A DNA stretch of 26,003 nt. Origin: Desulfobacterales bacterium. Lineage in GTDB: Bacteria > Desulfobacterota > DSM-4660 > Desulfatiglandales > B25-G16. The position numbers and the translations under genes were made by a program. This document shows, piece after piece, positions 1 to 13,975 of this stretch. The stretch's first letter is position 1; every line of letters starts with the position of its first letter. Location: positions 1 to 26,003 of the forward strand of contig DAOVGH010000027.1 of the NCBI GenBank assembly GCA_030672485.1, read 5' to 3'. The notes under the pieces were generated by a model. That model saw only the letters and a program-made list of their open reading frames with translations. It was not told where the DNA came from and did not search any database.

Positions 1-19
1 TCCTGCTCTTATCGATACT

Positions 20-3000
20 GTGTCTTCGGTATTGAGCGAGGAAGATGATTCGTTGGTTTTTGCCGCTTTTCAGACACTAATCTCCCTTAACCCAAAAAAT
101 ATAAAACAAATCACAATAGCACTGTTGAGAAAACATCCTGGGATGAGGACGAGGACCTTCGGTGTCATCCCCCAACTGGGTATGGTAAAGACACAGGAGA
201 TGCTTGATTGTCTAACACCCAAGGAAAGATATCAGGCACGGGCAACCATAGTTGAAACCCTTAGGAAAAGGGATAATGAGCTTAAGGCCCTTTTCTTGAA
301 AGCCGGACTGGAAAGTTCAACTGAGGCGATAAGAAATCAATCGCAACTTCTGTTACAGGAGATAACTTGCCCCGGTGGAAGGACCGGTGATCTTGATAGG
401 GTAGGCAATCCTCCTCCACCCGACAGTGGGAAGCATAGTAAAGGATTGACGGTGAAAGCCCTTTCCCGCCTTAAAAAGAGGTTTCTCCTGAGAAAGCTCG
501 CCAACAGGATCCCCCTCGAGGATGTTGATCTGTCCGGCATGACAATATGCGATCTTGATCTGTCGAGAATAAGCTTGAGCGATGTTGATTTTCGAGGCGC
601 AATCTTAAAGAAAGTGGACTTTTCCGCTGCCAAGCTTTCTTATGTTGACTTCAGCGGCGCCCTCCTTGAGGAGGTAAATCTTGAGGGTGCCTATCTGAAC
701 TCGGTCAATCTCGGTCATGCATCTCTGAAATCCATCTCAGGCAGCAATGCTATCTTTTCAGCAGTGGATTTTTCGAGGAGCTTTGTTCATGACTGCAACT
801 TCACAGAGGCCCAAATGAGGGGCTCGATTTGTGAGCGTACGCGAATCCTGGATTCTGATTTTTCCCTGGCAAACCTGGAGGGGGCATCCTTTTTTGAGGC
901 CGAGATTCGAAATACATTGTTTCTGCTCTCCAATCTCCAGATATCTGATCTGTCCTACGCGTCGATCTCTTCCTCGGCCTTCTCGGGTTCAGACATGTCC
1001 ATGGCCCTTACCTCTCATGCCGAATTCTCCGAAGGATTATCCCCTGAAAACGAGGTACAAATATCATCCCTCCATACCCCTTTCCCATCCATCTTCTTTG
1101 AGGGTGATCCCTTTAAGGGATTCCGGAAGGCATTTGATGCACTTATACTCGCGACGGAAATCAAAAAGCAAAAGAGGATTTTTCTCGAATACAATAAGAG
1201 AAGAATCGAGATAGCCATGGAGTCGTTCAGACCTGAGCAGGCCGATCTTTTTGAATTAATACCCCTTTTGATCCACACAGGAGAGAACCTTCTCCTATAT
1301 GATGGTTATGCGGCTGATTTACCTGAAGGGATTGACAAATATGTACCTGCCCGTACCGCTCTCAAGAAGGTCAGGAAATATTTCCCCAAGGAGAGACTGC
1401 CGTCAATTTTGAGGAAGAAAGGGGATATCCAGGCCCTTTTTACTATTGGAAGTGTTGGCACAGTATCACAAAGTAAGGATTCAGACATTGAGTACTGGGT
1501 CTGTATAGATGCCGACGCTTTGGGCGAGAAAAAGATTAGTCAGCTCAGGATAAAACTCGAGGCTATTTCCACATGGGCATTAAAGATATTTCGCACCAAG
1601 GTTAAGTTTTTCATAGTGGACAAAGAAAAAGCCAGACAGAACGATTTTGGAAGCAGTGACAAAGAGAGCTCAGGTTCAGCCCAGGGAAAGTTGCTAAAGG
1701 AGGAATTATATCGCACCATGATCTTCATAGCCGGCAGACTACCTCTGTGGTGGTTGCTGCCGGCTAACATCAATGACAGGCTTTACGAGTATATGAATGA
1801 GCTGGCCTCTCTGCTTGAAGAGGAGTTCATAGATTTGGGAAACGTAGATAATATCCCTTTGGGTGAGTATTTCGGTGCCTCTATCTGGCAGATCTTAAAG
1901 GGCCTGACCAGTCCATACAAATCAGTCATGAAAATGGCCCTACTTGAAAAGTATACTGGTAAGGGAGAAAACTATCAGCTTCTCTGTGATAAATTACAAA
2001 CCAATTATAACAGAGGCTCACGAGACCTAAGGGAAACTGACCCCTACATTCTTCTCCTTGAAGAGGTTCTCGGATATTATCAGGAAAGGGGTGATGAGGA
2101 GTCCCTTGTTAAAATTCAAACATCTTTCTACTCAAAACTGGGTATCCGGTCTTTGTACGATTTAAAGGATATGGTCTCTATAGACAAGAGGGGCCTGATT
2201 TTTGATTATATGGACAGGTGGAACTGGGATGAGAAAAAGATCCGGTACCTAGATCCGTCTCAGGAGTGGTCTTTTAGAAGATTAGTTGAGCAAGGCACTG
2301 ATATAAACAAATACATGATCAAAACCTATAGAAGGATTGCCAGCGGTTTGGGAAAGGTGAAGGACTCCATTATCTCTCCCACTGATCTGACGATCTTCGG
2401 AAGAATAATTGCCTCACGGTTCACCCAAAAGAAGGGAAAGGTGGATAGGTTGATAATCGCCTCACCCGGGGAAAAGACCTTCAAGAAGCTTTTTATCAAA
2501 TATGAAGGGCAAAAAACTGGCATTACGTGGAAGCTTATCCAGTTATTGGAAGTACCCCGGAAGGAAAGGCGGGAAGAAACCCTGAAGATAACGAGGAGGA
2601 TCGAGTTCCTTGCGGCCTGGATGATAAGTAATGGGTTTTTTTCGACCGAAACATCTGTTAATCTCTATCCGAACCCATCCTCTGTATCAATTCAAGATGT
2701 GCAAGATCTTTTGAAAGAGCTGGCACGATTTTTCCCCAAGGAGTGGATTGAGGACATTTACCTCAAGGATCTCCTCGATAATACTTATGTCAGAAGGCTT
2801 CTCGTTATTCTCAATTTCAACAGGGATAGAAGGGAAAAGAGGATTTTCGAATATACGGCCATCTATGACAACAGCTGGGGTGAACGGTTTTGCCAGACCT
2901 TCTTCAGCCGGGAAGGACTTTTCTCCAGAGAAGAGGTATTGGAAGAGCTAAGAACCTCTCTTGAGCTGCCGTTTAAAAACGATGTAGTAAGGTTCTATGT

Positions 3001-3043
3001 ACCTCAAAAGGCCCGAAAACATCTCTCCGCTGCCCTTTCCTAA
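20..3043 (+). CDS. cyaA: Class I adenylate cyclase-family protein with N-terminal helical region and long pentapeptide-repeat domain; 5' partial (frame open to the window edge)
   Basis: The C-terminal ~620 aa carry class I AC motifs: FTIGSVGTVSQSKDSDIEYWV (cf. GS...SDLDIWV), SGSAQGKLLKEELYRT, EYFGASIWQILKGLTSPYKSVMK, DPYILLLEEV, LAAWMISNG. The codons upstream of the GTG at 20 (cct gct ctt atc gat act) contain no stop, so the true start probably lies outside the window. Confidence 0.85.
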   Translation: MSSVLSEEDDSLVFAAFQTLISLNPKNIKQITIALLRKHPGMRTRTFGVIPQLGMVKTQEMLDCLTPKERYQARATIVETLRKRDNELKALFLKAGLESSTEAIRNQSQLLLQEITCPGGRTGDLDRVGNPPPPDSGKHSKGLTVKALSRLKKRFLLRKLANRIPLEDVDLSGMTICDLDLSRISLSDVDFRGAILKKVDFSAAKLSYVDFSGALLEEVNLEGAYLNSVNLGHASLKSISGSNAIFSAVDFSRSFVHDCNFTEAQMRGSICERTRILDSDFSLANLEGASFFEAEIRNTLFLLSNLQISDLSYASISSSAFSGSDMSMALTSHAEFSEGLSPENEVQISSLHTPFPSIFFEGDPFKGFRKAFDALILATEIKKQKRIFLEYNKRRIEIAMESFRPEQADLFELIPLLIHTGENLLLYDGYAADLPEGIDKYVPARTALKKVRKYFPKERLPSILRKKGDIQALFTIGSVGTVSQSKDSDIEYWVCIDADALGEKKISQLRIKLEAISTWALKIFRTKVKFFIVDKEKARQNDFGSSDKESSGSAQGKLLKEELYRTMIFIAGRLPLWWLLPANINDRLYEYMNELASLLEEEFIDLGNVDNIPLGEYFGASIWQILKGLTSPYKSVMKMALLEKYTGKGENYQLLCDKLQTNYNRGSRDLRETDPYILLLEEVLGYYQERGDEESLVKIQTSFYSKLGIRSLYDLKDMVSIDKRGLIFDYMDRWNWDEKKIRYLDPSQEWSFRRLVEQGTDINKYMIKTYRRIASGLGKVKDSIISPTDLTIFGRIIASRFTQKKGKVDRLIIASPGEKTFKKLFIKYEGQKTGITWKLIQLLEVPRKERREETLKITRRIEFLAAWMISNGFFSTETSVNLYPNPSSVSIQDVQDLLKELARFFPKEWIEDIYLKDLLDNTYVRRLLVILNFNRDRREKRIFEYTAIYDNSWGERFCQTFFSREGLFSREEVLEELRTSLELPFKNDVVRFYVPQKARKHLSAALS
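521..1030 (+). repeat. Pentapeptide-repeat coding region (roughly 33-34 five-residue units)
   Basis: Translation shows strict 5-aa periodicity of the A(D/N)LXX type: VDLSG MTICD LDLSR ISLSD VDFRG AILKK VDFSA AKLSY VDFSG ALLEE VNLEG AYLNS ... Confidence 0.9.
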
Positions 3044-3068
3044 ATAAAGCCTCGAACAGGGGGCTGAG

Positions 3069-3812
3069 CTATTGTTTTGCCTGGCTCGCTACGGCCTCAG
3101 CAGCCCTCTTTGCAACCTCAGGGTCTCCCAAATAATAGTGGTTAATTGCCCTCAGATTGTCATCTAGCTCGTATACCAGGGGAATACCCGTTGGGATGTT
3201 AAGACTGACAATCTCCTCCTCGGGAACATTGTCGAGGTACATGACCAGTGCCCGCAAGCTGTTTCCATGCGCTGCAATCAAGACCTTTTTCCCCTCTTTG
3301 AGAGCTGGGACGATGGTATTATGCCAGTAAGGCAAGAAACGATTAACAGTGTCCTTCAAGCATTCGGTTAAGGGAGTATCCCTTTTTTCAAGATCTGCAT
3401 ATCTGGGGTCTTTTCCAGGATACATATCGTCATTTCTATCCAGTTCAGGCGGCCTGATGTCATAGCTTCGTCGCCATAGAAGAACCTGATCGGCTCCGTG
3501 TTTGGCGGCTGTCTCGGACTTATTCAATCCTTGCAAGGCACCGTAGTGCCTTTCGTTAAGCCTCCAGCTCTTGTATACTGGGATCCACATTAAATCCATG
3601 TCCTCCAAGATAATCCACAGGCTCTGGATAGCCCGCTTGAGAACAGAGGTATATGCGATATCAAAGGCATACTTCTCTTCCAACAGGAGCCGGGCAGCAG
3701 ATTTGGCCTCTTTTATACCTAACTCGGAAAGTCCTACATCTATCCATCCGGTGAACCTGTTTTCAAGGTTCCATGTGCTCTGACCATGTCTGACAAGGAC
3801 CAGCTTAATCAT
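3069..3812 (-). CDS. gpmA: 2,3-bisphosphoglycerate-dependent phosphoglycerate mutase
   Basis: [12 protein letters not shown] (RHG catalytic His), [33 protein letters not shown]; SD GAGGAG upstream of the ATG. Confidence 0.97.
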
Positions 3813-3888
3813 AGCGGGATACTCCTCTGCTTTTCCCTCTTGAGGGTAAGACTATTCACCTCCATAAAAGAGGAGGCTTTTCCAATTA

Positions 3889-3917
3889 AATATACCACCC
3901 AGGAGTTGTCTTTTCAA
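3889..3917 (-). promoter_or_regulatory. Putative sigma70 promoter of gpmA
   Basis: Minus strand reads TTGAAA-17 nt-TATATT, with TG two bases before the -10 (extended -10). Confidence 0.65.
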
Positions 3918-4041
3918 ATCATTACCTCAATACCCTTCAAAAACGCTGAGGCCCTGTGCGCTCCCCGAGAGATATGCAAGATGTTTTTTGGAAAACAGAC
4001 AAGTCACCCTTTTCAAGGTGTGGTTATTGACTTTCCTATTG

Positions 4042-4070
4042 TTGACATGGCTATAGTTAGAAAATATAAT
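4042..4070 (+). promoter_or_regulatory. Consensus sigma70 promoter of selC
   Basis: TTGACA (4042-4047), 17-nt spacer, TATAAT (4065-4070); the tRNA starts 8 nt later. Confidence 0.9.
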
Positions 4071-4078
4071 ACAAGTGC

Positions 4079-4177
4079 GGAAGTGGAAAGCTCACTGGTG
4101 GGGCTCCCGGACTTCAAATCCGGTGTGTCGCGACGAAAATCGGGACAGGTGGGTTCGATTCCCATGCACTTCCGCCA
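4079..4177 (+). tRNA. selC: tRNA-Sec (anticodon UCA)
   Basis: GGAAG... 5' end, anticodon arm CCGGA-CTTCAAA-TCCGG, long variable arm (TGTC...GACA), T arm GTGGG-TTCGATT-CCCAT, 3' CACTTCC-G-CCA with G73; selA is in the same window. Confidence 0.95.
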
Positions 4178-4182
4178 CGTAA

Positions 4183-4195
4183 TATCAAGGACTTA
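4183..4195 (+). promoter_or_regulatory. IHF-consensus site immediately 3' of selC
   Basis: TATCAAGGACTTA matches WATCAANNNNTTR exactly, 5 nt after the CCA end. Confidence 0.55.
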
Positions 4196-4291
4196 CGGGC
4201 CTCAGGAAGCCCAATATTAGAGAAGATTTCCGCTGCTTGGCTTTCAACCGGCAGACGGGTGAAAGAAGATCTGGCGATGAGGGGTGCACAG

Positions 4292-5182
4292 TTAGTCGCC
4301 TTGTGCTCCCGTTTCCTCTCTCAGTAAGTCCTCACCATATTTATCAATAAAAGTGTCAAGGTCCTTTCGCCAGTTGAGCAGGACGTTCAGCCCTTCCCTC
4401 TTCAATTGTCTGTTCTCAAGGATGGAATTGACCGGTCTTATCGCAGGCGTGGGATACTCCTTGGCAGCGCAGGGAACAACAGGGGTCTTAATCCCCATTT
4501 TCTCCAAGAAATACTTTGCCAACTCATATCTACTGCAATAACCCTCTGAGGTGGCATGGTAGATCCCTTCTTTTCCATTGTCTAATAATAGCTTGATCTG
4601 CCGGGCCACCCTATAAGACCAGGTAGGGGAACCGAACTGATCGTTAACAACACATATGGATTCCCGCTTCCTTTTAAGAGCCACTCTCAGTATTTTCTTC
4701 AGGAAATTATCTCCCCGAATGCCGTAAAGCCAACCAGCCCTGATAATGATATAATTTCGAGTGTTTTGCTTCACGGCCATTTCGCTCTCCATCTTTGTAA
4801 AACCATAGAAACAGAGGGGATCCATGGGATCATCTTCAAAATACGGTTGTGGTAGCCTCTTTCGGCCATTAAATACAAAATCGGAAGATATATGAACAGT
4901 CGTCTTATCATATCTGGCCGCTGCCTGTGCCAAGTTCCTGGTGCCTTCCACGTTAATTCTCTCAGAAATCTTTCTCTCTGTTTCACACTCGTCTACCTTG
5001 GTAAAGGCAGCGCAATTAAGAATGATATCGGGTGATAGTTGATTAATGGCGATTATGACCTTATCCCAACTGGTGATATCAAACTCTTCTCTATCTGGGG
5101 CAATGATTTCATAGCCGCTCTTCAGAACCTCCTTACACTCGCTGCCAAGTCCTCCCCGTGCACCAGTCAATAGAATCTTCAT
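4292..5182 (-). CDS. rfbD: dTDP-4-dehydrorhamnose reductase
   Basis: MKILLTGARGGLG Rossmann motif, LNCAAFTKVDECE, HISSDFVFNG, YGFTK (YxxxK), IRAGWLYG, VNDQFGSPT, PAIRPVNSIL. Confidence 0.93.
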   Translation of the reverse strand: MKILLTGARGGLGSECKEVLKSGYEIIAPDREEFDITSWDKVIIAINQLSPDIILNCAAFTKVDECETERKISERINVEGTRNLAQAAARYDKTTVHISSDFVFNGRKRLPQPYFEDDPMDPLCFYGFTKMESEMAVKQNTRNYIIIRAGWLYGIRGDNFLKKILRVALKRKRESICVVNDQFGSPTWSYRVARQIKLLLDNGKEGIYHATSEGYCSRYELAKYFLEKMGIKTPVVPCAAKEYPTPAIRPVNSILENRQLKREGLNVLLNWRKDLDTFIDKYGEDLLREETGAQGD

Positions 5183-5492
5183 TTTTTCCTACCCCCCCAG
5201 CCTTACTTTACATGCTTAAGGCTTGATGTTTGAGAATACGTTTATGCCTTATCCATCGGATTGGCAAAAACATCCCTGGCCCTGTTGCTCCTGTAAACAA
5301 CCTAAATAATTCTACCATTTTTACCACGTATTATCAATTCCAGAAGCGAAAATGGCAACTTGTGCAGGTCAGGCTCAGGTCTTGGATGAAAGCGCGCATA
5401 CACTTCTCAGGCTGGGATAAAAAAATGAGAAGGATAGACGATAAAGAACAGGCATGTGAGAAGATAAAAGGTAGCTACCAAGGGCAGGTTTA

Positions 5493-5501
5493 TGCTATGA
5501 T
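5493..5501 (+). promoter_or_regulatory. Possible extended -10 promoter for pgi
   Basis: TG-C-TATGAT; no recognisable -35 at 17 nt. Confidence 0.4.
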
Positions 5502-5538
5502 TTCAGAGCGCGTATACGCAGGATAATGGATCATAGGG

Positions 5539-7053
5539 ATGGAAGGAATGCAGCTCATTGGTTTTGGTGAAAACAATTCCATAAGAGCGCAAAAACAAAG
5601 GCGTAAAGGCAAAAAAAACCCGTTTAACGAAGGACCGTGGCAATTGGCCAATAGAATCTCTCTTGATCTTACGTATCTTTTTGACACCCCAGGCGACGCT
5701 CCCTCTATAACATTTGAGGATATTGAAGATATTGCACCGCAGGTAATAAGGGCCCATAGGATGTTAAAGAAAGATCAAGGAGATATCTATGACCATGGGA
5801 TACCAATGACAGGCTGGCAGAACCTTCCCGGGGAGATAACACAAGAACATTTGAAGGAGATAAAATCCGCAGCCCGGGGTCTTGGCAGCCAAATCGATGC
5901 ATTTGTTTCCTTAGGCATTGGCGGATCTTCCTTGGGCATCGAGGCCACATTTAAGGCCTTGACCCATACCTATTTCAATCAGTTGAGCCGAAGGGAGAGG
6001 GGGGATGTACCGGAGATCTACTTTCTGGGTCAGAACATGGACCCCGACTATTTCAGGGACACCCTCGATATGCTAAAAGGCAAAACCGTTGGAATGAATG
6101 TTATATCCAAATCAGGTACAACAACAGAAACCGCAATCGCCTTCAGGATCCTGCGTAACTTAATGGAGAAAAACTGGGGTCAAGCTGCCAAAAGCTTAAT
6201 ATACGTGACTGCTGGTGCTGCAACAGGGGCCCTACAGGAATTGTCAAAGCACGAGGGATATAAAACCTTCCCTATTCCGGACAATATCGCTGGCCGCTAT
6301 TCGGTTTTAACAGATGCGGGATTAGTGGGCCTCGCTATGGCCAATATTGATATCGAGGAATTCGCCGCGGGATTTGAATATATGAGGAATGTCACAATGT
6401 CAGACGATCTCTGGGAAAACCCAAGCCTTGTTCACGCAGGGGCTCGGTATGCAGCATGGTTGAAAGGGAAAAAGATAGAGGTGGTGGCCACTAACTCGCT
6501 ACCTCTATATGGCATAGCCAGATGGATGGAACAGTTATTCCCAGAAAGTGAAGGACATGCCGGCCACGGGATGTGGGTGTCTCCTTCCCTTTACCCTGAA
6601 AAGCTACATGCCAATGGCCAAATGGTTCAACAGGGAGAAAGAAACATTTTGGAGACCTTTCTCATGTTACGGGAACATGATAACAGGATTACCATTCCCC
6701 ATGATAAAAATAACCTTGATGGATTGAATTTTCTACTCGATAAAGGTCAGGACATGAATAGCATTAACCGAACGGTTATCGAAGGACCTGCCTATGCCCA
6801 TTATTTAGGGGATGTTCCCAACATGACAATTGAGATTCCGAGAAAAAATGCATTTTGCCTGGGAGAAATCTATTACATGATGGAAAAATCGGTAGCTATA
6901 AGTGGTTACCTCTTAGGTCACAATCCCTTTACTCAACCAGGTGTAGAAGATTATAAGAGGGCGATGTTTGCCCTGCTTGGAAAACCTGGATTTGAGCAAG
7001 AGGGGAAAGAGATCAAAGATAAGATCAGCAAGATGAAAAGGGTCAAAATCTAG
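5539..7053 (+). CDS. pgi: Glucose-6-phosphate isomerase (start uncertain; in-frame TTG at 5644 with an AAGGA SD is a good alternative)
   Basis: LGIGGSSLG, VISKSGTTTET, IAGRYSVL, QLFPESEG, LHANGQ, NPFTQPGVEDYK motifs. Confidence 0.93.
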   Translation: MEGMQLIGFGENNSIRAQKQRRKGKKNPFNEGPWQLANRISLDLTYLFDTPGDAPSITFEDIEDIAPQVIRAHRMLKKDQGDIYDHGIPMTGWQNLPGEITQEHLKEIKSAARGLGSQIDAFVSLGIGGSSLGIEATFKALTHTYFNQLSRRERGDVPEIYFLGQNMDPDYFRDTLDMLKGKTVGMNVISKSGTTTETAIAFRILRNLMEKNWGQAAKSLIYVTAGAATGALQELSKHEGYKTFPIPDNIAGRYSVLTDAGLVGLAMANIDIEEFAAGFEYMRNVTMSDDLWENPSLVHAGARYAAWLKGKKIEVVATNSLPLYGIARWMEQLFPESEGHAGHGMWVSPSLYPEKLHANGQMVQQGERNILETFLMLREHDNRITIPHDKNNLDGLNFLLDKGQDMNSINRTVIEGPAYAHYLGDVPNMTIEIPRKNAFCLGEIYYMMEKSVAISGYLLGHNPFTQPGVEDYKRAMFALLGKPGFEQEGKEIKDKISKMKRVKI

Positions 7054-7198
7054 CCTTCCATTCACCCATGCCTCCACCAACCCCAACATAAATTCTATGA
7101 GTCATCCACATGATAAAAAATATTGACAAAAACAGTGCCATGACCAAAGATAGACCAGTCTAAGATAGACCTGAACAAGGTAGGGGTGAGTATACAAA

Positions 7199-8599
7199 AT
7201 GAAAAAGTCAAGGCTTAAAGGCTTAAGGCTCAACGGTTTAAGGCTTATAAAACCAAGGATTACGGTTGCACTGTCACTAGCTGTTATTATCTCACTCCTT
7301 CTTATCTGGCTGTTGATGACTATCTTTGAAGGCGAAAAACCTGAGGCTCATCTGGAACCAGTGCCGGAGTATTTGAGTAAAGGCATTACGTTCAATGTAT
7401 CCGCTTCCGACCTGAAAATGGGACTGAGAAATATACATGTGAGTGTAAGACAGGATGGGCTTGTTATTCCCATACTAAGACGGGATCTTCCATATGTGGG
7501 ACTATTCAACAAACGGGGAGTCCATAAACTTGAAGAGGAATTTACAGTAGATCCAAAAGAACTAAATATGATACAAGGTCAGGCCAGTCTTATCATTGAG
7601 ATCCACGATTTCTCTAAAAGGAGAGGTGGCGATGGAAATCTTCTCCTATTAGAGCATAAAATGGTAGTTGACACCCTTCCTCCATCAATAACAGCTACCA
7701 GTAGAGGCCATAACATTACCATTGGGGGTTCTGGCCTGATTGTTTACAGGCCCTCATCTGACACCCGTGAAAGTGGCGTTTTGGTAAATGATCTTTTTTC
7801 CCCTGGCGTGCCCTTCTCCAGAGATCCTCAAACTGGACTATATATCTGTTACTTTGCCCTTCCCTACAATTCTAAAAAAGACACTACCTTGTACCTCTGG
7901 GCCAGAGATAGGGCTGATAATGAAACAAAAAGGGTCTTTTCCTGTTATATCAGGCAAAAACGCTTTCGCCGGGAAAAGATCAAGGTATCCGATCGGTTCT
8001 TGGATCATGTAATCCCCCGCTTTTCTCCTGATTTATTTGAGCCAGATAAAACCAAGGTTGAAAAGTATCTGCTCATTAACAGAAGACTGAGAGAGGAAAA
8101 CCATGCTCTTTTGATAGATCTCTGCCAATCGCCCACTGAGGAAAAACTGTGGGACGGTCCCTGGATGAGAATGAAGAATGCTGCAACAATGGCCATCTTT
8201 GGTGAGCAGAGAACCTACTATTACAAGGGCAAGGCAATAGATGAGACCGTACACCTGGGTGTTGATCTGGCATCATTGGCCAGAGCTCCAGTTCAGGCTG
8301 GCAATACTGGCAGAGTTGTTTTTGCCCAAGATCTCGGAATTTACGGCCTAACAGTAGTACTCGATCACGGGCAAGGCCTATACACCATCTACAGTCATCT
8401 AAGCAAGATTGATGTAAATGTTGGTCAACTCGTCACCAAGGGAGATAACATTGGCATTACCGGCCAAACAGGTCTGGCAACCGGTGATCACCTCCATTTC
8501 GGCTTTATGGTGCATGGTGTTTTTGTAAACCCTATAGAGTGGTGGGATCTTCACTGGATAAAGGACAACATATACAGAAAGTTGAACGTGAGTAGATGA
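7199..8599 (+). CDS. Membrane-anchored M23-family metallopeptidase (peptidoglycan DD-endopeptidase-like)
   Basis: N-terminal hydrophobic anchor; C-terminal HLGVD (HxxxD), VVLDHGQGLYTIYSHL, TGDHLHF (HxH). Confidence 0.92.
   Translation: MKKSRLKGLRLNGLRLIKPRITVALSLAVIISLLLIWLLMTIFEGEKPEAHLEPVPEYLSKGITFNVSASDLKMGLRNIHVSVRQDGLVIPILRRDLPYVGLFNKRGVHKLEEEFTVDPKELNMIQGQASLIIEIHDFSKRRGGDGNLLLLEHKMVVDTLPPSITATSRGHNITIGGSGLIVYRPSSDTRESGVLVNDLFSPGVPFSRDPQTGLYICYFALPYNSKKDTTLYLWARDRADNETKRVFSCYIRQKRFRREKIKVSDRFLDHVIPRFSPDLFEPDKTKVEKYLLINRRLREENHALLIDLCQSPTEEKLWDGPWMRMKNAATMAIFGEQRTYYYKGKAIDETVHLGVDLASLARAPVQAGNTGRVVFAQDLGIYGLTVVLDHGQGLYTIYSHLSKIDVNVGQLVTKGDNIGITGQTGLATGDHLHFGFMVHGVFVNPIEWWDLHWIKDNIYRKLNVSR
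7210..7246 (+). repeat. Degenerate tandem 7-8-nt repeat (AAGGCTT) inside the 5' end of the M23 gene
   Basis: AAGGCTT-A AAGGCTT AAGGCTC AACGGTTT AAGGCTT, encoding RLKGLRLNGLRL. Confidence 0.7.
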
Positions 8600-8635
8600 G
8601 ATCGGCGAGAAGTAATGAGGACCTGAAAGCTCCAT

Positions 8636-8887
8636 ATGAGAATTGATTCACGGCTAAAGGTTATCCAAGTTAGCTGCTATTCAGGATATAAGGCAAATGA
8701 GCGGCCGGCGGATCTTACGGTCCGAGGGCGAAAACTCATGGTAGAGAAGATTATCGACCGGTGGTATGGGGTAAATCATAGCTATTTCAAGATATTAGCC
8801 AACGATCAGAAGATCTATCTTATCAGGTATGACCAGGATGAGGATCTCTGGACCCTGGAAAAGATAATGGATTCAAAAATGAGATGA
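8636..8887 (+). CDS. Small conserved hypothetical protein (83 aa, probable beta-rich/SH3-like fold)
   Basis: Pattern [13 protein letters not shown]...IIDRWYG...[17 protein letters not shown]...W resembles a small protein family I recall from Deltaproteobacteria (DUF6504-like, unverified). It is co-oriented after the M23 gene and overlaps the uvrB 3' end by 15 nt. Confidence 0.75.
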
Positions 8888-13012: not shown

Positions 13013-13975
13013 TTAGGAAGGAATTTTATTATTCTCCAAATTTTCGATCAGGGCTGCTGCAAGCAGAGGAAACATAATCTCATTGTGCCCCGTGAGGGGA
13101 AATCCCTCACCATCCTCCAGGGTTGGCCTCCTAACGACATTATTCATAGGCCTGTAATGTCTTATGAAATCCATATCCACCGTTGTAAATCTCCTCACAT
13201 CAAACCCCAGGTTTCTGACAAGGGTAAGGGCCTTTAAGAATACTTCAGGTAAGATAACAGCTGAGCCAAGGTTGATATATACACCACCTTCAAGGCGCGA
13301 GACCAAGGTGGCAAAGATTCGGAAATCAAGGTGTGAAGTTTTTCCGACTGCTGATCCGTCTACGGCCGGATGAAAATGTATGGTATCCGTGCCTATTGCT
13401 ACGTGCACCGTAAGGGGAATATTCATTCTCGCAGCTCCAGCTAACAAACTGAACTCATTATAGGGAAAAGATGCCTTGAGAACATTCTTCCCGACTGAAT
13501 AGCCCAGTCCATCCCCTCTTTTAGCTCCTTCCCTGATTGCCCTATTGAGAAACTCCCCTGTCTCTCTTGCCATTCCAAATCTTCCGCGAGGCAGTTCAGC
13601 CTCTACATCCTCTGATGTGGCGCCAATCATGGCCACCTCCAGATCATGTATGATGCCGGCACCATTCATGGCTATACCTGTAATTATTCCCCTTTCCATC
13701 AAATCCAAGATCACAGGGCTTAACCCGATCTTAATGGTATGAGCCCCCGTAGCTAATATGATATTCCTCTTTTCTTTTACGGCTATTGTTAACCTATTAA
13801 CCAGCTTTCTAAGATCACTTCCTGCGAGAATATTTGGCAGCCCTTGGAACCAAAGGCCGATCGTACCACCTGCTGTCCAGCCCGACCCGAAATCCGCTAC
13901 TGAGACCTTGCTTGATCTTTTTTTGAGCGAATAGGTTCGTACATGTTTCAGGGATATTGGTTTCAATTTGTCCAT
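13013..13975 (-). CDS. Conserved hypothetical protein with deoxyhypusine-synthase-like fold, function unknown
   Basis: GAHTIKIGL, IAMNGAGIIHDLE, TSEDV, VHVAIGTDTIH, GGVYINLGSAVILPEVFLK, G-H-E-I-M C-terminus resemble DHS-like proteins; embedded in the gmhA-ispF-cysS-uvrB run. Confidence 0.7.
   Translation of the reverse strand: MDKLKPISLKHVRTYSLKKRSSKVSVADFGSGWTAGGTIGLWFQGLPNILAGSDLRKLVNRLTIAVKEKRNIILATGAHTIKIGLSPVILDLMERGIITGIAMNGAGIIHDLEVAMIGATSEDVEAELPRGRFGMARETGEFLNRAIREGAKRGDGLGYSVGKNVLKASFPYNEFSLLAGAARMNIPLTVHVAIGTDTIHFHPAVDGSAVGKTSHLDFRIFATLVSRLEGGVYINLGSAVILPEVFLKALTLVRNLGFDVRRFTTVDMDFIRHYRPMNNVVRRPTLEDGEGFPLTGHNEIMFPLLAAALIENLENNKIPS

Follow-up and report, generated by a model that had tools for sequence, protein, structure and literature searches.

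A class I adenylate cyclase of Desulfobacterales that carries a large N-terminal solenoid and pentapeptide-repeat module

As far as we know, nearly all work on class I adenylate cyclases concerns enterobacteria, and the sole control we know of for them is the glucose phosphotransferase system (PTS) acting together with the C-terminal domain. The described enzyme, E. coli CyaA (848 aa), is a cytoplasmic single-chain, Pol-beta-like nucleotidyltransferase with both Pfam class I domains, and short stand-alone class I cyclases (~630–660 aa, NF006981 type) carry the same domain pair. Pentapeptide-repeat proteins (PRPs), for which we know of few cellular roles, include the gyrase-protecting DNA mimics MfpA, Qnr and AlbG, and others that serve multidomain proteins as protein-docking modules (the E3 ligases NleL and SopA, PipB2, HetL); in NleL the beta-helix lies N-terminal to an enzymatic domain. 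The first-pass annotation of the DNA analysed here had reported a cyclase combining these two worlds, and had stated that class I cyclases normally lack such an input domain and that no description of such an input logic was known to it. Both statements held up: a module of this kind is missing from the class I cyclase that has been studied, and a full-text literature search found no paper on a solenoid–PRP–class I cyclase architecture.

The window, meaning the whole stretch of 26,003 nucleotides, belongs to an uncultured Desulfobacterales bacterium from marine sediment, whose genome bin is fragmented and 56% complete. A single frame, already open at the contig's first base and free of stops, occupies 2..3043 on the plus strand (1013 codons, with the stop at 3041–3043), so that the GTG at base 20, initially read as the start, is an internal codon. 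A metagenome contig that is 98.7% identical over 8875 nt (L002) supplies the missing 5′ end and encodes a complete product of 1341 aa (P0002), placing the true start ~980 nt beyond the end of our contig. The window thus holds a 5′-truncated coding sequence of a ~1341-aa protein, and the missing 327 residues, as read from L002, complete a predicted ~410-aa HEAT-like alpha-solenoid. The helical N-terminal part seen at first is real, but it is only the last third of this solenoid. Residue numbers below refer to the truncated window product unless P0002 is named.

The AF2 model of the window product (pLDDT 81.6, pTM 0.70) predicts a succession of domains, all on the plus strand. Helices at residues 1–122 (2..367) would be the last repeats of the solenoid. 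They are followed by a Pro/Gly-rich linker at residues 125–154 (374..463; P0002 residues 452–475), predicted to be disordered with pLDDT <50, and by a helix at 151–167 (452..502) that caps the N-terminal end of the beta-helix. The right-handed quadrilateral beta-helix itself, supported by Pfam, AF2 and structural matches, spans residues 172–343 (515..1030) at pLDDT 90–95 and comprises ~34 pentapeptides, or ~8.5 coils. A second linker, at residues 344–385 (1031..1156), is predicted to be disordered over 344–357 and, by alignment and AF2, carries a semi-conserved P..FF motif and leads into a long cyclase helix. The cyclase consists of an N-terminal nucleotidyltransferase domain (387–584; 1160..1753), a core made of a helical region and a first beta-rich region (608–946; 1823..2839), and a beta/alpha end of this core that is defined by alignment and AF2 (947–1013; 2840..3040). 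Reading frame, Pfam domains and AF2 model agree that a PRP beta-helix and a class I cyclase are encoded together in one gene, as had been proposed. Solenoid, flexible linker, PRP and second flexible linker add up to an N-terminal module of ~670 aa. Counted as solenoid plus PRP, the module is twice the size of what the truncated window shows.

A search for class I loci found ~452. Among the 80 best species-representative loci, 74 carry open frames of 1205–1386 aa, and the architecture is kept in at least 74 species of Desulfobacterales, which are of the sulfate-reducer type. The solenoid–PRP–cyclase order is shared by 33 clusters and is also present in isolate genomes, cultured carriers being Desulfospira joergensenii DSM 10085 and Desulfatiferula olefinivorans. 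Both the solenoid–PRP and the PRP–cyclase junction are spanned by independent contigs, which come from four studies and for which no joints were reported. A fragmented, incomplete bin is the kind of source in which a PRP gene and a cyclase gene might be joined by a chimeric assembly; given the bridged junctions and the matching species-level loci and isolates, we put the chance of such an artefact at close to nil, and the design is common in the order rather than a one-off. In a tree of the cyclase domain, one branch (100/97) separates the 41 fused proteins, without exception, from the bare (~630–750 aa) and C-extended (~930–1016 aa) forms. The fused architecture is of single origin. In an exhaustive profile-free search, the solenoid–PRP module occurred only in this cyclase family among the matches listed: no module alone or fused to another output was seen among the 150 matches listed, where every full-span match was a ~1300-aa member or a fragment. 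At the two nearest bare forms examined, no PRP gene lay beside the cyclase.

The cyclase domains score far above threshold. Adenyl_cycl_N (PF12633; E 1.1e-47, 163 bits) matches residues 387–584 and Adenylate_cycl (PF01295; E 2.3e-57, 195 bits) matches residues 608–946, against a gathering cut-off of 27; the second match covers profile positions 1–341 of 601 and leaves positions 342–601 unmatched. Residues 370–1013 align with E. coli CyaA over roughly its 640 N-terminal residues at ~26% identity, whereas the last ~200 residues of CyaA, including the end of its regulatory domain, have no counterpart. The enzyme had been called a full class I cyclase, which is right for the ~630-aa core form but not for the enterobacterial length. 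It shares core length and domain pair with the short stand-alone cyclases, which are common in the same phylum but have no N-terminal module and branch apart from the fused proteins in the tree. For the window product, none of the NCBIfam class I models reaches its cut-off, the best being NF006981 (428 bits against 802, positions 18–625 of 638 aligned), which indicates a diverged subfamily rather than an equivalog of a curated one.

The catalytic GS...SD-x-[DE]-x-W motif (1448..1498), located by alignment to E. coli CyaA, consists of G483, S484, S494, D495, E497 and W499, equivalent to E. coli G102, S103, S113, D114, D116 and W118. Conserved between the two proteins are G102, S103, S113, D114, W118, K136, E185 and R188, and across an alignment of 34 homologues the catalytic residues are invariant or nearly so. 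For E. coli CyaA, Ser103, Ser113, Asp114, Asp116 and Trp118 are reported to be essential (Linder 2008, cited in PMC12104821). The one substitution concerns Asp116, which is Glu in the bin of the window and Asp in P0002, 33 homologues and four other populations; codon 497 (1490–1492) reads GAG here and GAT in all others compared. Glu is tolerated in Pol-beta-type motifs, and its presence in the window copy could lower activity.

With this Ser/Asp/Trp motif, which E. coli CyaA also uses, conversion of ATP to cAMP is the most likely activity of the core. The ~26% identity to CyaA, together with NCBIfam scores that are all below cut-off, means that the product could differ, and a PDB sequence search returned PRP matches only and no solved class I cyclase structure. 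Even so, we regard another cyclic or linear nucleotide product as very improbable: the two Pfam class I matches greatly exceed their thresholds, the residues essential in E. coli are retained (Asp116 as Glu in the window copy), each of the five genomes searched, all with the fused cyclase, has 4–14 cNMP-binding matches, and at one locus (L016), representing one clade, a gene for an HD-domain phosphodiesterase ends 18 nt upstream of the cyclase. The nucleotidyltransferase fold is echoed by a VIA match to ANT(3'')(9) over residues 408–783 (Z 11), and AAD(9) was also matched; PRP matches took up the lists from Foldseek and VIA, so that cyclase and solenoid were barely sampled.

The solenoid occupies P0002 residues ~37–449 and is modelled by AF2 as ~26 stacked helices at pLDDT ~90. 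HEAT_2 exceeds its cut-off in one homologue, P0010 (42.8 against 27.7), and stays below it in P0002. VIA matches to the HEAT proteins PH0542, CpcE/F and AP2 reach Z ~11, a generic value in the same range as unrelated helical repeats. The most conserved motif of the entire N-terminal module, LLxxGGRGPxxAW, lies in the solenoid.

By sequence, the beta-helix segment is a PRP: PF00805 (Pentapeptide) matches residues ~172–335 with E 2.4e-21 and 75 bits against a cut-off of 20.2, and ~34 tandem repeats of the A(D/N)LXX type run in register, the fold itself being a prediction. It resembles NleL (Z 14.5) and, as there, precedes an enzymatic domain; its NCBIfam matches to HetL, PipB2 and SopA are weak; NleL/SopA, PipB2 and HetL differ in having unrelated catalytic partners and biology, the homology being limited to the repeat fold. 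With MfpA, Qnr and AlbG it shares the quadrilateral beta-helix of ~8 coils, the acidity and superpositions at Z 20–24, but it sits inside a 1341-aa enzyme as one domain among several, with undistinctive charge and an unconserved surface.

This likeness raises the alternative of a topoisomerase-coupled cyclase, in which the PRP would dock on gyrase or topoisomerase IV and the state of this type IIA topoisomerase would be reported by cAMP output or would gate it. A superposition on MfpA takes in 168 of 180 residues (Z 22.7–23.6, rmsd 1.9–2.0), and the fold also superposes on EfsQnr, AlbG and AhQnr (Z 20–22), yet NP275/276 (2j8k), a PRP that is not gyrase-directed, matches at least equally well (Z 25–26, rmsd 2.1–2.5), and the Qnr and MfpA models of NCBIfam score 34 bits against 240 and 25 against 360, far short of family membership. 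The MfpA superposition covers chain residues 2–171 of 180 and so stops short of the MfpA C-terminal end; past the last coil of our model there is only a low-confidence segment, whereas gyrase-protecting PRPs form rod-shaped homodimers through a C-terminal helix. A net charge of −7 to −12 in most members would suit a DNA mimic, but the most distant members are neutral, and acidity was rejected as a DNA-mimic signal because the mean over 129 generic, unrelated PRP segments is −7.1 per 176 aa (sd 7.6). Conservation in the PRP is confined to inward positions; the outward ones vary, and the four faces score alike at 0.43–0.44, with no outer face conserved. Gene order offers a further point: in ~47 of 88 loci the cyclase gene is divergent, typically by 41–140 nt, from a parE-like and then a parC-like gene. 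This synteny is limited to one clade, and no second ParE-like copy was seen in the genome of the window or in G008 (95% complete), where all frames matched by a ParE query were longer, GyrB-like and ~40% identical. The DNA-mimic analogy drawn in the first-pass annotation thus finds no specific support, and a topoisomerase-coupled cyclase appears doubtful.

In the large clade with parE–parC, HPr–Enzyme I genes are also found downstream of the cyclase gene, an arrangement seen in ~40 loci. In Desulfotignum these genes begin 18–24 nt past the cyclase stop, and they also occur in the Desulfamplus and G240 clades; in most loci with this neighbour, an opposite-strand gene lies between the cyclase and HPr. 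Neither HPr–Enzyme I nor parE–parC occurs in the window or in L002, or beside the gene in three other deep clades, and we found no neighbour conserved across the whole family or within the clade of the window itself. An HPr–Enzyme I fusion is encoded elsewhere in the genome of the window. The family context, with HPr–Enzyme I downstream in the largest clade, indicates cyclic-nucleotide and PTS signalling, although both the PTS and the topoisomerase neighbours may be inherited synteny of that one large clade.

We favour, at slightly better than even odds (about 0.55), a class I cyclase with an N-terminal regulatory module for protein interaction, for which the PTS phosphocarriers are the leading candidate input. 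On this reading the protein is a cytoplasmic, CyaA-type, Pol-beta-like nucleotidyltransferase belonging to a conserved ~1300-aa subfamily, in which the ~670-aa module takes the place of the absent enterobacterial C-terminal tail and would act as the regulatory, protein-interaction input of the enzyme. The solenoid, which bears LLxxGGRGPxxAW, would bind the partner or ligand, and the PRP rod would serve as a connector of fixed length or as a second docking surface, relaying the signal to the cyclase. Gating by a partner recognised through the beta-helix, as first suggested, may be part of this arrangement. The leading candidate for the signal would be the phosphorylation state of HPr and Enzyme I.

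Control within the chain is the first alternative to this reading: the solenoid and PRP would fold back on the core, autoinhibiting or stabilising it, with a small ligand or none and no protein partner. The catalytic domain of E. coli CyaA is inhibited in cis by the regulatory domain of that enzyme, the pTM values of the two multi-domain AF2 models (0.70 for the window product and 0.78 for full-length P0002) are fairly high, and a family-wide conserved neighbour is missing, all of which would fit. The predicted disordered linkers on either side of the PRP suggest mobile beads on a string instead, and HEAT solenoids and PRPs are, to our knowledge, protein-binding scaffolds wherever studied (HetL–HetR, PipB2–kinesin, NleL). 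On balance we consider intramolecular control unlikely. A complex prediction of the PRP (160–346) with the cyclase (386–1013) scored 0.00 and was counted neither for nor against contact.

Alternatively, the module could be an arm that holds the cyclase, itself constitutively active, at a cellular structure or complex without gating catalysis. The PRP is 176–178 aa long in 32 of 34 homologues, and such invariant length combined with variable surfaces is what a spacer would show; many genomes also hold a bare class I cyclase and several class III cyclases, which makes local rather than global cAMP pools plausible. By eye, the N-terminus of P0002 shows neither a membrane nor a targeting signal, and nothing direct speaks against tethering; we nevertheless hold it to be rather improbable. 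A bolder reading is that the arm docks on a housekeeping machine, which could be HPr/Enzyme I of the PTS or a type IIA topoisomerase whose DNA substrate the PRP would mimic. This is a speculative proposal to which we would give long odds. If it were true, cAMP synthesis in Desulfobacterales would be a direct readout of DNA-topology or ATP state, or else of the PEP:pyruvate state, an input logic unlike the EIIA-Glc control of enterobacterial class I cyclases; the topoisomerase version would be the more novel.

Anaerobic sulfate reducers have, in effect, swapped the C-terminal tail for a large N-terminal solenoid and beta-helix and kept the exchange through deep divergence. Knowing the input of the module would uncover a second way of regulating class I cyclases, and its role would give a pentapeptide-repeat domain a cellular function; should it be a passive spacer, the finding would be only a catalogue entry. 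The cultured carriers make the role of the module testable.

Apparent split forms were also noted in the survey. The locus L123 is called as two overlapping genes, and G003/L043, L097 and L110 are split over two frames; we set these aside, as they look like frameshifts or assembly errors and not like natural splits.

The cyclase gene occupies a single plus-strand open frame of 1013 codons, which runs off the contig start and extends from base 2 to a stop codon at 3041–3043; the GTG at base 20, taken as the start in the first-pass annotation, is internal to this frame. The genome bin holding the window is 719 kb and 56% complete, and the window covers the initial 26 kb of its contig C56. Pfam searches of the plus-strand frame identified pentapeptide repeats (PRP; residues ~172–335, E = 2.4 × 10⁻²¹), the class I cyclase N-terminal domain (residues 387–584, E = 1.1 × 10⁻⁴⁷) and the class I cyclase core (residues 608–946, E = 2.3 × 10⁻⁵⁷, profile positions 1–341 of 601). 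The top NCBIfam model was NF006981, the 638-residue short class I form, matched over positions 18–625 at 428 bits, below its cut-off of 802. Because of these matches, the earlier observation of PRP and a class I cyclase in one frame proved correct, and the sequence identifies the cyclase as a diverged member of class I. Downstream lies a convergent phosphoglycerate-mutase-family gene (3069–3812, minus strand). Farther along the window, a 319-aa ORF (13013–13975, minus strand) between ispF (YgbB) and SIS-domain genes had no Pfam match at E ≤ 1 × 10⁻⁵.

Recovery of the 5′ end, proposed in the first-pass annotation, was achieved with L002, a JGI metagenome contig with 98.7% identity to window positions 1–8875. 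It carries the whole gene, encoding a 1341-aa product (P0002) with the 327 missing residues, flanked upstream by a divergent isocitrate/isopropylmalate dehydrogenase-family gene and downstream by the same phosphoglycerate-mutase-family gene.

An assembly error joining two genes is ruled out by contigs bridging the junctions and by homologues of the same architecture. Logan contigs from four studies (marine sediment, cold seep and subsurface) bridged both domain junctions, with no joints reported over window positions 1–3100. In the survey of homologues called for earlier, a search of 5.8 billion proteins recovered this domain string in 33 clusters, mostly 1161–1367 aa long and 27–98% identical. 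Among species-representative genomes, a scan recovered 452 relatives; the best 80 loci were examined for architecture, and all of them covered both PRP and cyclase. Open frames of 1205–1386 aa were present in 74 of these 80, and the other six end at contig ends or are split over two frames. Carriers include Desulfobacula, Desulfotignum, Desulfobacter, Desulfobacterium, Desulfamplus, Desulfospira joergensenii DSM 10085 and Desulfatiferula olefinivorans, together with one Desulfarculaceae-labelled genome bin and unclassified Desulfobacterales or ‘Deltaproteobacteria’ bins. A 1273-aa AlphaFold DB cluster representative named ‘Adenylate cyclase class 1’ spanned the whole model, so public databases already list the design, under an automatically assigned name; our literature search found no paper on the solenoid–PRP module described below. 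The window gene genuinely belongs to a class I adenylate cyclase subfamily that has gone unstudied and is common within its order; the novelty of this subfamily lies in its N-terminal module. At a few homologue loci, the cyclase gene is split over two frames or two overlapping calls at or before PRP (L043/L008 on CP070660.1, from the window's genus; L097 and L110 from one Desulfobacula bin; L123); these loci probably reflect frameshift errors or pseudogenization, not naturally split genes.

Class I cyclases were found in 39 of 401 sampled genomes of the phylum, with open frames that are bare (~630–750 aa), C-terminally extended (~930–1016 aa) or fused (~1310–1330 aa). A maximum-likelihood tree built from 70 cyclase domains places the 41 fused proteins, without exception, to one side of a branch supported at 100/97, with the bare and C-extended forms opposite. 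This split fits a single fusion event retained through deep divergence. Several Desulfobacula-type genomes encode two paralogous fused cyclases (locus pairs L064/L065, L069/L078, L068/L070, L073/L120 and L096/L119).

The cyclase portion was aligned to CyaA from E. coli K-12, and its positions were compared across the 34 family members. The CyaA residues reported as essential, Ser103, Ser113, Asp114, Asp116 and Trp118 (Linder 2008, via PMC12104821), align with S484, S494, D495, E497 and W499 of the window frame. CyaA G102, K136, E185 and R188 are likewise conserved, and most catalytic-set positions are invariant across the 34 members. Codon 497 (1490–1492) is GAG, placing Glu at the Asp116 position; Asp (GAT) occupies this position in P0002 (98% identical), the 33 other homologues and all four metagenome populations. 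E497 reflects either variation between strains or an error in this bin's consensus. Glu for Asp is a conservative change, allowed in Pol-β-type motifs, but could lower activity. The predicted cyclase model matched aminoglycoside nucleotidyltransferases (Z = 11), and a sequence search of the PDB found no class I cyclase structure. The window protein stops ~200 residues short of the CyaA end.

The predicted order of parts is a solenoid (~410 aa), a disordered linker, a cap helix, PRP, a partly disordered linker and the ~630-aa cyclase. In an AF2 model of P0002 residues 1–705 (pLDDT 85, pTM 0.78), the 327 missing residues and window residues 1–122 form an all-α solenoid of about 26 helices. Its structural matches to HEAT proteins reached Z ~11 at most, a generic level, and the HEAT_2 Pfam match was below cut-off in P0002 and above it in one homologue. 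The most conserved motif of the N-terminal module, LLxxGGRGPxxAW, lies in the solenoid at about residue 150 of P0002, outside the window. In the window's lineage the solenoid is broken by a low-complexity, Lys/Pro-rich insert (KKPKKPKKPK, P0002 residues ~263–275) that is predicted to be disordered.

The PRP β-helix is predicted to comprise 172 aa, ~34 pentapeptides and ~8.5 coils (pLDDT 90–95). The first-pass annotation likened it to the DNA mimics Qnr and MfpA, an analogy that found no support beyond the shared fold. Superposition of the predicted helix gave Z = 22.7–23.6 with MfpA (rmsd 1.9–2.0, 168 residues), Z = 20–22 with Qnr and AlbG, and an at least equally good fit to cyanobacterial NP275/276 (Z = 25–26); the window PRP's scores for the Qnr and MfpA families were an order of magnitude under the model cut-offs. 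Net charge of the 176-aa region was −7 to −12 in most members, with 0 to +2 for the two most divergent; since 129 unrelated PRP segments of the same length average −7.1 (sd 7.6), this acidity carries no signal. Inward positions are conserved and outward positions poorly so on all four faces (0.43–0.44), and 32 of 34 members share an indel-free length of 176–178 residues. Given the near-invariant length, the variable outer faces and the location of the best-conserved motif in the solenoid, we favor a role for PRP as a rigid connector of fixed length, or as an element that docks through its shape, over a sequence-specific recognition surface.

No conserved neighbor was found in the window's clade, and three homologues from other clades (L003–L005) shared no neighbor with the window's gene or one another. 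In the largest clade, at about 47 of 88 loci (within L055–L122), the cyclase is divergent, typically by 41–140 nt, from a parE-like gene encoding a 647-aa type IIA topoisomerase B-subunit, followed by a parC-like gene (for example, L071:988–3051 and L090:3–1118, both minus strand). This neighborhood keeps the DNA-mimic interpretation alive as a minority reading beside the favored connector or docking role. The arrangement is absent from the window; in the window's genome and its relative G008, a ParE query matched only longer GyrB-like frames (~40% identity), giving no sign of a second, ParE-like copy in either.

Downstream of the cyclase, genes for HPr, Enzyme I and then smpB occur in L074, L075, L095 and ~40 other loci, as well as in L015, L115 and L118. 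HPr starts 18–24 nt past the cyclase stop in Desulfotignum; elsewhere in the largest clade an opposite-strand LOG-family gene intervenes, and in Desulfamplus and genome G240 HPr–Enzyme I lies 1.5–2.3 kb downstream. Where both contexts of a paralogue pair were readable, only one copy kept the parE or HPr–Enzyme I context. These arrangements suggest a PTS link for the fused cyclase, which would echo PTS control of E. coli CyaA, although only one clade has the topoisomerase/PTS block, and shared ancestry may account for its synteny. In the window's genome, HPr and Enzyme I form one 693-aa frame on another contig; the apparent fusion (691–694 aa) is shared with its two nearest relatives (G000:C38:3958–4617, minus strand, in the window's genome; G003:C1:867027–867689 and G008:C50 in the relatives).

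At L016, from a Desulfovibrionales-like host, a DUF3391–HD (HD-GYP-type) phosphodiesterase gene (946–2235, plus strand) ends 18 nt 5′ of the fused cyclase on the same strand, suggesting a synthesis-plus-degradation operon. The family's gene contexts fit cyclic-nucleotide signaling. All five genomes searched, each with a fused cyclase, had 4–14 cNMP-binding matches; class III cyclase matches also occurred in four of the five.
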